A DNA stretch of 61,222 bases, counting the filler, from Dugesia japonica (Eukaryota): NCBI GenBank assembly GCA_001938525.1. It is 5 parts of 5 records of this genome, joined end to end, with 100 filler letters (N's around TTAATTAATTAA, not from the genome) between each part and the next. Parts side by side here need not be neighbours in the genome. Positions count along the whole stretch, not along the records: positions 9,776 to 24,530 come from MQRL01573423.1; positions 24,631 to 39,095 come from MQRL01506934.1; 3 more parts are not named here. One strand, given 5' to 3'. The position numbers and the translations under genes were made by a program. The notes under the pieces are model-generated. The model saw nothing but the letters and a program-made list of their open reading frames with translations, was not told the DNA's origin and searched no databases. How positions within the stretch are numbered: the first letter of the stretch is position 1; each line of letters begins with the position of its first letter. Shown piece after piece: positions 16,417 to 36,125 of this stretch.

Positions 16417-16452
16417 CAATTCCTGACGAAGACAAAGTCGAAATATCGAATC
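16417..16452 (+). ncRNA. Minimal type I hammerhead ribozyme motif (Penelope-type), copy 1
   Basis: attc-CTGACGA-A-GAC aaa GTC-GAAA-TA-TC-gaat; followed by a conserved ~90 bp block shared with other copies. Confidence 0.65.
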
Positions 16453-17941
16453 AATCACAAAAAAACAAAAAAATTTTGATCGAATCTTTTATTTTAAATG
16501 AATTCTAAAAAACGATCAATGGTTATGTCCAACAATTATTCTCGCAATAATTGCAATTATAATATATATATATTGAAAAAAATATTTAGAATATATTTTT
16601 TAAATATTAAATGAACACATTTTTCTACAAATATTCAAAATTATTGAAAATAATTGAAATTTTTTTAAAGCGTTTAAATTATCTTTCAAACATTTTTATT
16701 AAAATGAATAATTAGATGTATTTATTTTTCAAAGTTATTGTAAATTTTATTGGTAGTTGTTTAATGTTGTAAATAATAATTTTAAATTAAAAATTTATTA
16801 GAATATACGGTTTGCTGAAGTTGATTTCAAATTTTCGTGTAAAACTAATGCGAATTATTTGATTAATTGAACATCCAGAAATCTTCAATGATTAAAGAAG
16901 AATTTTATTAAAATTCGAAGTTTGAAGTAGAATTTTTTGTTAAAGAATACATTTTGTCAAATGAATTTAAAATTTCCTGAAACTATAGTATTTGATTTAT
17001 CTAACAATCTTAGTCATAAATAAACAATTGATGCCAAAAGAATAAGTAAGCAACCTATTCATTGTTAAATAACTATTGACTTTTCAGAAATACAATTTCT
17101 AATAGTATTTTATTGCTTATGTACATCATATCTTATTTAAAAATCACTAAAATATAGAATTTACAACGCCCTTTTAAATGATTCTTAGTAAAATTTTGTG
17201 CTAGAAATCTTAAAATCATTGANNNNNNNNNNNNNNNNNNNNNNNNNNNNNNNNNNNNNNNNNNNNNNNNNNNNNNNNNNNNNNNNNNNNNNNNNNNNNN
17301 NNNNNNNNNNNNNNNNNNNNAGTTGTGACACCAAACTATAAATGAAAAATGAATAACTGGGAAAGATATAATTAACACATAATAATAGATCAATATTTAG
17401 ATTTGGGCTACTGTGAAAAAATTTTGACATACTAAGGGGACTGTAAACAAAAAAAATTGAGAATCACTGGATTACATTATATTAATATCGGAACGAAAGG
17501 GGAAAAATTCTTTTTATGAAATTTCGGTTGAAATCGTATCAATCGACGTTGAATTTATTTGTAGAATTTTCAGAGTACACGATCTGAAAAACTGATACGT
17601 AATATATAATTCAAGATAAATTAATAAATAATTAAATTTTGATATAAAAATATTAATTATTTATTAACGGTATTTAATTAATTTAATCTACATTGAAACA
17701 TACGTATATTATTACACACATACTTCATACAGTACTTTCATATTTTGACTAAAAAATTAAACATCTAAAAAAACTAAGTATCTAAAAAATAATAATTAAA
17801 AAAAATTTTTTTAAATTTTCAAGAGTTAATTTAAAAATAAGAATGAAATTCATAATTAAAATAAACCAAAAAAATGTCTATAAAATCTAAAGAATTGAGT
17901 AACAAAGATCTATTGCTTTGAATCAATCAAGAAGCCGTGGT

Positions 17942-17975
17942 GTTCCTGAAGAAGACTATTGTCGAAAATTTGAAC
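17942..17975 (+). ncRNA. Minimal hammerhead ribozyme motif, copy 2
   Basis: gttc-CTGAAGA-A-GAC tatt GTC-GAAA-AT-TT-gaac. Confidence 0.65.
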
Positions 17976-19029
17976 TTTTTACAAATACATTTTATTTTGA
18001 TAGAAGCTTTTTCATTATTTTAATGAAATCTCAAATGCGATCAATGGTTAATTGTCCAACAATTATTTTCACAATAATTCTAGTAATTATAAATTTTAAA
18101 TACTTAATAAAAGAAAGCACATAATTTTGGAAACGATTGTGTCAAAACTAAAAACTTCAATGAAAATCTTTTTTAATATTCTTGCTTTAATTAATAACAC
18201 TTTTCACAATAAACTTAATAAACTTTTGTAAAATATTAATGAAAAAAAATTTTCGCAACCTCTATAACTAATCGAATCCAAATCAGAATTAATCAATTTT
18301 TAAATAATCAGTCTACTCAGATCTAATCAAAATCAAACTAATTAAATTAAATGAATTGTCAGTCAATAATTAATTAATTTATCATTTCAAGGGCATTTTA
18401 ATTAATCCATTAATTTAATCATTGTTTTAAATTATTACTGTTCAAGATTTCAGTTTAAAATTAAAATTTCCAAAATTTAGTTAATTGAATTGATTAGCAT
18501 TCTGACATATTTTCATTTAAACTATTGTAATAAAAAGATTAAATATTGGTAAATATTTTTATTTCTCAAACGTGTTTGCTTTTCCTAAATTTAAATTCAA
18601 TGGCTGAGGAAAATAGAATATTACCTAAATTTCAAATTGTTTAAATATTTTGATTTTTAAAAAAACGACATAAATTAAAAAGCGGTAAATTGGAATTGAT
18701 CATCGTTAAATTTTTGGAGCAATAATATTTTGAATAACAGAATATTATTGATAGTTTAAGAAAGAACAGTTAGTTTTGAAAATATGCTTCGTTCGCCATT
18801 TTGAAGTCTAAATTGTCAACAGATCTATTTTCACCTACCACGAAAAAAACGAAAAGACTTCAGCTTTCACATATGACATTCATCAACTTTGACTTATTCG
18901 TAAATGGTCTAAATTAGTACCTCCTGAACTGTGAGAAAAAAACAATTTGAATGTCTAAAGGTTCTCTACTTTTACTAAATAAAAAAGAGCAAATAATTAA
19001 AAACAAATAATAAAAAGCAAAACAACGGA

Positions 19030-35000: not shown

Positions 35001-35249
35001 NNNNNNNNNNNNNNNNNNNNNNNNNNNNNNNNNNNNNNNNNNNNNNNNNATAAATTAAAATTAGAATTATATTATCATTAATTATAATACATTTATAATA
35101 ATTTCAAAGATTCAAAATCACATATCTAAAATTATGATGAAGCCATAGAGTATAAAGGCTACATAAGTTAAAAATTCAGTAAATAAAATTAACAAAATTA
35201 TTAATCATCGATAAAAAAAATGATAAATCATAAAAATAATAAATTCAAA

Positions 35250-35810
35250 GTACAAATTCATTAAAATAAAAGCTTCGATCAAAATTTTTTTTTGTTTTTA
35301 ATAATAATTCTAATTTTCGAATTTGTCTTCGTCAGGAATTGACTTTTTTTGATTTATTTAATATTTATTTTTACAATAGTAATTTCCTTTAAATTAATTT
35401 TCTTTCACTAAATTTTAATTGATTAATTTTAATTTTTTAATTTTAATTTTTTAATTTTAATTATTTAATTCTTATAAATTACATTGATTTTAGGATTATC
35501 TTCTTTAATTAGTAATTCTTCATGTTTCTTTCCTTGAAGTGTNGAAATGTAGCCTGTCCATGGTGTTTTCAGATGTTTTGTGAAGTTGTACTGGTGAAAT
35601 TTTATGTTTGTGTTGAAAATGTTTGAAGACCTTACTTTCTTGTTGTTTCAGATGTTCATTAATTCTTGTTCAAATGGTTCTGCATGTTTCACTTATGTAT
35701 GTTTCTTGACAAATGGTGCATGTTATTTTGTAAATGACATTTTTCTTATTGTATATATTTCTACCATTACAAATGCATTTGGGACCACAAAAGTTTTATC
35801 TTGAATAAAA
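35250..35810 (-). mobile_element. Penelope-like retroelement 3' end: GIY-YIG endonuclease relic plus hammerhead-bearing repeat
   Basis: Minus strand KKNVIYKITCTICQETYISETCRTI*TRINEHLK (Penelope GIY-YIG with CxxC), followed downstream by the hammerhead at 35306-35340. Confidence 0.8.
35306..35340 (-). ncRNA. Minimal hammerhead ribozyme motif, copy 5
   Basis: aattc-CTGACGA-A-GAC aaa TTC-GAAA-AT-TA-gaatt on the minus strand; one stem II mismatch. Confidence 0.58.
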
Positions 35811-36125
35811 AACATTTCATACACAATCATAATATTCATGTTGACTACAATAATCAAAAATGGAAAATAATAGATTCCTACAATATATATCAGCACTTCA
35901 TAGAAAAAAACACGAAGAAATTTTAATCATAAAATTTAAACCAAATATTAATATAATTTTTAATAATATTATCAAATCAAAATAAGGATAAAAACATTTA
36001 ATTCAAAAAAATTGATATTAACCTTCAAATTGAATAAATCAATCACAACTCCTGAAGAAGATAAAATCGAAAAATTGGGTAAAAATAAAAACGGTTTTTT
36101 TGAAACTTTTTTGATCTAAGCCTTA
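35810..36125 (+). mobile_element. Second Penelope-like 3' end, opposite orientation, with hammerhead copy 6 (36048-36080)
   Basis: WKIID..HRKKHEEILIIKFKPNIN resembles the GIY-YIG C-terminus (R..E...I....P.LN); actc-CTGAAGA-A-GAT aaa ATC-GAAA-AA-TT-gggt follows. Confidence 0.6.

Follow-up and report, generated by a model that had tools for sequence, protein, structure and literature searches.

What are the six short motifs that lie dispersed over a 61,222-nt stretch of the Dugesia japonica genome (assembly GCA_001938525.1; five parts joined by gaps), which element carries them, and how could they act? In a first-pass annotation of this stretch, hereafter called the window, they had been read as minimal hammerhead ribozymes with an extra A in the core and covarying stems, and a relation to Penelope-like elements (PLEs) had been proposed. 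All coordinates below are positions along the whole window, which is eukaryotic sequence of 74% A+T. As judged from the core, the stems and the coding relics next to them, the motifs are very probably minimal type I hammerheads (min-HHR) located in pseudo-long terminal repeats (pseudo-LTRs, pLTRs) of a Nematis-like, endonuclease-bearing PLE clade. Our best explanation joins to this identity a ribozyme that would be paired through palindromes and assisted by protein, and taken as a whole we consider it likely.

Six motifs with a hammerhead core

All six of the annotated motifs were recovered (16417, 17942, 24487, 32031, 35306 on the minus strand and 36048, by which the copies are named in the following; Table 1). 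A relaxed stem-aware descriptor, in which the core was required together with at least 2 bp in helix II and at least 3 bp in helix I, returned exactly these six from the window and nothing else, compared with a mean of 0.14 and a maximum of 2 matches in 200 dinucleotide shuffles performed in 2-kb blocks. Scores of the six copies against a covariance model made from them were 52-57 bits, which is high by construction, and the next match in the window, at 17.6 bits, was no further intact hammerhead; fuzzy matching, nhmmer and the covariance model together gave no additional copy in the window, intact or decayed. An Rfam scan (E up to 10) returned five matches at chance level and no hammerheads.

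The catalytic core CUGANGA ... GAAA-NN-UH, the G10.1-C11.1 pair and an A as the extra base after CUGANGA were present in 6/6 copies, which fall into three subfamilies: A (16417, 32031 and 35306), B (17942 and 24487) and C (36048). Twelve core positions were identical in all copies, as compared to 20-53% identity between subfamilies in the 30-nt upstream flanks. This agrees with the claim of a fixed core that is more conserved than its flanks, although the copies were picked by their core and the invariance is therefore partly circular. In the six-row alignment 52 of 54 cells were paired (96.3%) and four of the nine pairs, namely two of helix I, one of helix II and 15.2-16.2, had changed in both partners. 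Neither the pairing score nor the covariation score was reached by any of 500 shuffles, in a test that disregards the relatedness of the copies, and slid controls were 11-50% paired. Given that the six copies represent three subfamilies, the covariation rests on about four independent changes.

Compensatory variation had been proposed for both stems, and it held for the helix I and helix II pairs just mentioned, but the full 6-bp caattc/gaattg stem occurs at 32031 only (it is shortened at 16417 and 35306) and helix II of the minus-strand copy is broken by a C.U mismatch. The proposed replacement of stem III by a 4-nt palindrome was confirmed: in five copies positions 15.2-16.2 are palindromic (ATAT twice, AATT three times), with no helix III in the monomer and with a change on both sides, the exception being 36048, which has AAAT and is unpaired here. 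The expectation of an AUC triplet before the cut was wrong for most of the family, since only two of the six copies have it and the others have UUA, UUU, UUU and AUU.

The number of matches relative to the shuffled mean, the both-side changes in three helices and the location of the motif exactly where it would be expected in a PLE (see below) refute a chance resemblance within an AT-rich dispersed repeat. We regard the probability of such a coincidence as negligible, in spite of the base composition, the short stems, the unremarkable folding z-scores of the motif contexts and the lack of an Rfam match.

The extra unpaired A had been taken for a lineage-specific variant, and this is contradicted by the literature. 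A base that sits between 9 and 10.1 recurs, together with the G10.1-C11.1 pair and the 15.2-16.2 palindrome, among published min-HHR of PLEs, and when counted by eye it was found in 54/56 published rows (A 30, U 12, C 11, G 1; PMC4209133). The present motifs share with those described by Cervera and de la Pena 2014 the CUGANGAH core with an extra base, the GAAA-NN-UH segment, a short open helix I, the G10.1-C11.1 pair, the palindrome, the location in pLTRs and the mostly solo copies, and AUAU or AAUU palindromes as found here are seen in the Nematostella, Schmidtea and Crassostrea rows (PMC4209133). Opposite-strand pairs in that study lie 100-700 bp apart; the pair in the window is separated by 717 bp.

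Helix II is where the family differs. It consists of 3 bp and a loop of 3-4 nt (9-10 nt in all), whereas by eye at least 4 bp are present in 55/56 published rows and the 3-bp exception, from C. briggsae, carries a loop of 5 nt; in the Schmidtea min-HHR of that study helix II is 5 bp long and the extra base is U, instead of 3 bp and A (PMC4209133). As predicted from sequence, the short helix II is the one distinguishing trait of the present family, below all 56 published examples. Engineered hammerheads function even when helix II is reduced to one G-C pair (PMC544870), so a helix II of 3 bp would be compatible with catalysis. The suggestion that standard descriptors may miss the family is true of Rfam but not of the published descriptor (helix I 3-7 bp, helix II 3-7 bp, loop 2 3-10 nt; PMC4209133), which in our own implementation found 5/6 copies and missed 35306 through the one mismatch in its broken helix II. 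The copies that pass sit at the lower helix II bound of this descriptor, helix II being typically longer in the published family. Among the papers listed on planarian Penelope hammerheads and on Dugesia, PNL2_SM or Nematis Penelope elements, no account of this ribozyme was found; Lunse et al. 2017 or Repbase may already describe the family or a 3-bp helix II.

Relics of a Penelope-like element

The relation to PLEs, proposed in the first-pass annotation, was borne out by endonuclease remnants and by remnants of the start of an open reading frame (ORF) flanking the motifs. In a self-comparison the dispersed repeat extends about 110-125 nt beyond the predicted cut. Two of the six hammerheads come after endonuclease remnants and three before an ORF start, and the 24487 copy is tied to PLEs only via its 88% identity to the 17942 copy. 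P0003, an 843-aa protein with reverse transcriptase (RT) and GIY-YIG domains, was the sole match of the larger endonuclease remnant among six longer candidates and is 72% identical to it (72-75% when given for residues 733-841). The C-terminus of this protein matches 35801-35474 (minus) and 35884-35943 (plus), each upstream of a hammerhead. Downstream of the motif position, the first 17-20 residues of P0003 have counterparts from 16513 on, at 32138-32188 and at 61171-61112; the 17942 copy has the same ORF start with a frameshift.

The larger remnant contains an in-frame stop, frameshifts and an altered YIG motif, and it was recognized by Pfam (GIY-YIG, PF01541, E 9e-5, above the cut-off) as well as by a profile (E 8e-22), with the CxxC and the histidines of a CCHH signature visible in the translation. 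For the second endonuclease tip tblastn gave E values of 0.001-0.002 against P0003 and 7e-4 against P0005, and its nucleotide identity to the subfamily A tip is 72% over 76 nt; no Pfam match was obtained for its 33-aa piece and the profile search did not recover it.

The order within the family is endonuclease end, AT-rich spacer, hammerhead, 63-74 nt, ORF start and insertion end, the last lying about 50-60 nt inside the ORF. The repeat runs into the first ORF codons, and four copies stop at about codons 17-20. Published PLE pLTRs contain the first 12 ORF codons, or 22 with the tail (PMC3846280), and this layout together with the order found here identifies the repeat as a PLE pseudo-LTR.

No RT remnant and no full element were detected in the window, either by tblastn with 59 relatives or with a profile of 36. 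This indicated that all copies in the window are 5'-truncated relics and that no two of them are the two ends of one element; what the window holds are only dead, 5'-truncated PLE copies of three subfamilies. The cut site is spanned intact in every copy, which indicated that the template of each had been uncut or re-joined, and among the five copies with a 3' block and readable upstream sequence none starts at the cut. Target-site duplications were not convincing at any copy, and AT-rich 7-8-mers seen at two of the four sites tested were not accepted. Repeat homology of the 35306 copy stops at about 35255. A possible eighth relic at 42850-43016 (minus) consists of two weak matches, first to the endonuclease tip and then to the pLTR 3' block, between which no hammerhead lies, and 6 of 100 shuffled queries matched as well.

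Four of the six copies lack an endonuclease remnant, and the sequence they have in common reaches only 13-34 nt upstream of the core, as might be expected if the solo copies were a non-autonomous retrozyme or SINE-like (short interspersed element) family moving as its own unit, and retrozymes have been reported as derived from PLE pLTRs (bioRxiv 10.64898/2026.07.22.740005). We consider this origin most unlikely, since a subfamily A motif is joined to the endonuclease at 35474-35801, the 5' ends vary between copies, no target-site duplication was convincing and there is no tandem array at any copy. The non-LTR retrozymes of animals, which like the present family have a type I hammerhead in a low-GC dispersed repeat, differ in that their motifs are canonical type I hammerheads in tandem units of 170-400 nt, whereas the family described here has neither tandem units nor canonical helix I and helix II sizes and has PLE coding sequence attached (PMC7229834). 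Non-LTR retrozymes were rejected as a candidate because no tandem 170-400 nt units are present over any copy.

A search with residues 280-843 of P0003 gave 59 relatives, the best named one being from a coral (47%), and a full-library search with E up to 1e-30 gave 806. A FastTree tree was built from 64 of the 94 relatives having RT and endonuclease motifs and at least 560 residues; in it P0003 fell among short-linker elements (support 0.99) and separate from those with a long linker or none, where the labels were given by motif and no named references were included. P0003 has the motifs LAMG and RYIDD in the RT, a linker Cx3CxCx5C and DKT; the contracted linker is shared by P0003-P0005 and P0010, and the next relatives have a canonical short linker. 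An NCBIfam search gave only sub-threshold RT matches. Nematis PLEs likewise have, at the C-terminus, a GIY-YIG endonuclease with two cysteines between GIY and YIG and a short cysteine linker before it, with the difference that the linker is CX2-5CxxC and the motif DKG, and the PNL2_SM row (Fig. S2) has, by eye, a contracted linker and an endonuclease start similar to P0003 (PMC8557442). By its motifs the element is best called Nematis-like, resembling PNL2_SM. The suffix SM we take to stand for Schmidtea.

The DKT motif and the CxCx5C linker of P0003 are also found in Hydra-clade PLEs, which are described as being without CCHH and having a divergent RT and hammerheads with a helix III of 3-4 bp, none of which is seen here (PMC8557442). 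The Hydra clade was rejected because CxxC between GIY and YIG (CCHH) is present in the element. Six proteins (P0003, P0004, P0005, P0010, P0063 and P0064) form a subgroup with DKT or DKS (where readable), a CxCx5C linker and an intact CCHH endonuclease. This combination of Hydra-like traits with an intact CCHH could reflect convergence or a Nematis-Hydra intermediate, as far as the motifs suggest.

Table 1. Hammerhead motifs and PLE relics in the window (class names are predictions; C3, position of the core nucleotide C3; cut, last nucleotide before the predicted cleavage)
Feature	Position	Strand	C3	Cut after	Remarks
Minimal hammerhead, subfamily A	16417..16453	+	16423	16447	Helix I 4 bp; helix II 3 bp + 3-nt loop; ATAT
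Solo pLTR fragment around the 16417 hammerhead	16410..16560	+			ORF-start relic begins at 16513; stops about 17 codons into the PLE ORF, then short TA tract
Minimal hammerhead, subfamily B	17942..17975	+	17946	17971	Helix I 4 bp; helix II 3 bp + 4-nt loop; AATT
Solo pLTR fragment, subfamily B	17912..18090	+			ORF-start relic with frameshift, ATG at 18035
Minimal hammerhead, subfamily B	24487..24520	+	24491	24516	Common repeat from 24457, cut off by gap after 24530
Minimal hammerhead, subfamily A, best preserved	32031..32067	+	32037	32061	Helix I 6 bp; helix II 3 bp + 3-nt loop; ATAT
Solo pLTR fragment	32015..32188	+			32138-32188 correspond to P0003 residues 2-18 (82%)
Minimal hammerhead, subfamily A	35306..35341	-	35335	35311	Helix I 5 bp; helix II 2 bp, broken; AATT
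Degraded GIY-YIG endonuclease end of PLE ORF	35474..35801	-			About 130 nt upstream of the minus-strand hammerhead
Head-to-head junction of subfamily A and C fragments	35794..35810	.			6-bp perfect hairpin, not significant alone
Tip of second, divergent GIY-YIG endonuclease, subfamily C	35810..35959	+			Frameshifted; upstream of the 36048 hammerhead
Minimal hammerhead, subfamily C	36048..36080	+	36052	36076	Helix I 4 bp; helix II 3 bp + 3-nt loop; AAAT, non-palindromic
Seventh pLTR copy	61112..61222	-			3' block and first 20 ORF codons; hammerhead position beyond the window end

Proposed cleavage, with or without protein

A model for the action of such motifs is provided by the PLE PAc of Anolis, a Poseidon element, in which the hammerhead cleaves only with the PLE protein, reverse transcription starts within the ORF and the main template is uncut RNA (PMC11167929). 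PAc is like the present family in having a pLTR hammerhead by the ORF start, AT-rich targets and an insertion end that lies inside the ORF, downstream of the cut. The two differ in that the PAc ORF starts in helix II, with the cut 26 nt after the start codon and the end 111-118 nt into the ORF, whereas here the cut lies 63-74 nt before the start codon and the end about 50-60 nt into the ORF (PMC11167929).

By analogy, we are inclined to favour a protein-assisted dimer mechanism for the predicted ribozyme. Tandem pLTR-ORF-pLTR copies would be transcribed, and the RT-endonuclease protein of the element would bind near the ORF start and nick AT-rich DNA. Reverse transcription would begin at an internal site of the RNA that lies 110-125 nt downstream of this cut, from a template that is uncut or re-joined at the hammerhead, uncut RNA presumably being the usual one, and early fall-off of the RT would give rise to solo pLTRs and endonuclease tips. 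The ribozyme would be weak alone, as helix III could arise only by pairing of two 4-nt palindromes, contributed by the two pLTRs of one transcript or by two RNAs, and its folding would require the element's own protein. Occasional cleavage might then trim tandem transcripts to unit length just before the ORF.

In nearest-neighbour calculations, which leave out core contacts, active-dimer energies ranged from +7.5 to -6.2 kcal/mol, and in 6/6 homodimers the active fold was 7-18 kcal/mol above the best dimer fold, which fits a need for help in folding. Negative active-dimer energies were obtained for 2 of 15 cross-copy pairs, both intra-subfamily, and the A x C pair scored poorly. At 16415-16450 and 32029-32064 two competing hairpins that hide the core surpass the hammerhead fold in stability by 3.5-3.6 kcal/mol; in these models the competing hairpins of subfamily A are a possible built-in off state.

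The same energies bear on the proposal of the first-pass annotation, in which the identity of the motif is the same and the reaction is that of a plain, protein-free RNA double hammerhead. The palindrome in five of six copies, with its both-side change, speaks for this proposal; Schistosoma minimal hammerheads cleave at a low but detectable level when they are dimers or trimers and not at all as monomers (PMC4209133), and in a review PLE hammerheads are thought to cleave probably as dimers (PMC6765202). However, the intermolecular helix III would have only four A-U pairs beside a helix II of 3 bp, the active dimer lies far above its competitors as just described, and the Anolis motif is inactive without protein (PMC11167929), and for these reasons we find a protein-free reaction rather unlikely. 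Since the Anolis motif cleaves only with protein, a protein-free dimer assay could give a false negative.

Alternatively, the motif may cleave, or may once have done so, with cleavage being dispensable for transposition and the sequence being kept as a pairing or protein-binding signal or as a passenger. The five copies with a 3' block and readable upstream sequence, all of them with an intact site and none starting at the cut, would be explained in this way, Anolis hammerhead mutants left in vitro insertion unaffected (PMC11167929), and Craig et al. bring up the possibility that hammerheads parasitize PLEs (PMC8557442). Still, a pairing signal would need no catalytic bases, and three subfamilies with divergent upstream flanks have the same base at each of the 12 core positions (a conservation that is partly due to selection by the core); we hold dispensable cleavage to be improbable.

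Several observations weigh against protein-assisted cleavage by an active ribozyme. Two copies are damaged, 35306 in helix II and 36048 in the palindrome, and U is present at position 17 in three copies. Of six longer contexts only one has the hammerhead as its minimum-energy fold, subfamily A favours the two competing hairpins, and, as described above, RT remnants and full elements are lacking in the window. No conserved stem-loop was found at the presumed initiation site, where an inverted repeat is visible but the z-scores were -0.08 to 0.77 in 4/4 copies and the consensus fold was weak. The evidence for protein assistance stems from another clade, Poseidon, and in Anolis insertion was not impaired by mutating the hammerhead, nor did any RNA-seq reads terminate at the cut (PMC11167929). 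Naiad PLEs lack hammerheads and thrive nevertheless (PMC8557442).

At 35255-36120 PLE 3' fragments of subfamily A (minus) and subfamily C (plus) meet head to head at about 35800. Head-to-head inversion is the most frequent arrangement of PLEs (PMC3846280), and the junction could result either from nested insertion or from a single event using two RNAs. A bolder version of the protein-assisted mechanism would connect this junction with the shape of the motif. The motif would be the smallest natural hammerhead known so far (25 nt, counted from C3 up to the cut; a 3-bp helix II with a 3-nt loop), its palindrome (AUAU versus AAUU) would serve as a family-specific RNA pairing code bringing two element RNAs into one protein complex, and the A/C junction would be one insertion from two different RNAs and hence a trace left in the genome by PLE RNA dimers. 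This was suggested by a helix II below all 56 published rows, by the finding that only intra-subfamily pairs give negative active-dimer energies, and by the junction arms, which differ by compensatory stem changes and not by decay alone. We consider it highly doubtful: the 6-bp junction hairpin is not significant (401 of 5226 neighbourhoods, 7.7%, have one), no target-site duplication was found at the A/C junction, A x C is a poor pair, PLEs are reported to insert into or beside one another (PMC6765202, PMC3846280), and short forms of this kind may already be present in Lunse et al. 2017.

Other contents of the window and implications

Outside the PLE relics, a spliced gene for a ZNF207/BuGZ homologue is located at 40994-42334 (plus), matching Schmidtea mediterranea ZNF207-1 with 63% identity (the only match among 55 candidates); judged by this one gene, the host is probably planarian-like. 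A remnant of a DDE_1 transposase is present at 28474-28899 (plus; Pfam E 1e-16), which we take to be pogo/Tigger-like. Three broken ORFs at 56323-60350 (minus) gave no significant Pfam family and resemble capsid, integrase and ATPase pieces of a Polinton/Maverick, and a 307-aa proline-rich ORF at 22024-22947 (plus), also with no Pfam family, starts with MGCCCSK, which we assume to resemble a myristoylation/palmitoylation signal. Further repeat pairs were found by self-comparison at 1-242 and 846-1085, 4991-5429 and 6076-6530, 53374-53565 and 54888-55081, and 9853-10512 and 20629-21319; they comprise one 97% direct duplication, two long inverted repeats (91-92%) and one 66% direct pair, and the two inverted repeats may be DNA-transposon ends.

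Motifs of this kind escape Rfam and yet mark the ends of PLEs, which is of use for annotation, and seven relics in 61 kb suggest that the clade is abundant in its host. Protein-assisted cleavage outside Poseidon could be put to a demanding test in the present family, which combines a very short helix II with natural variants of the palindrome and has an 843-aa relative that appears intact. The family also offers a test that can be made from sequence alone, namely whether the ends of truncated copies accumulate at the cut.

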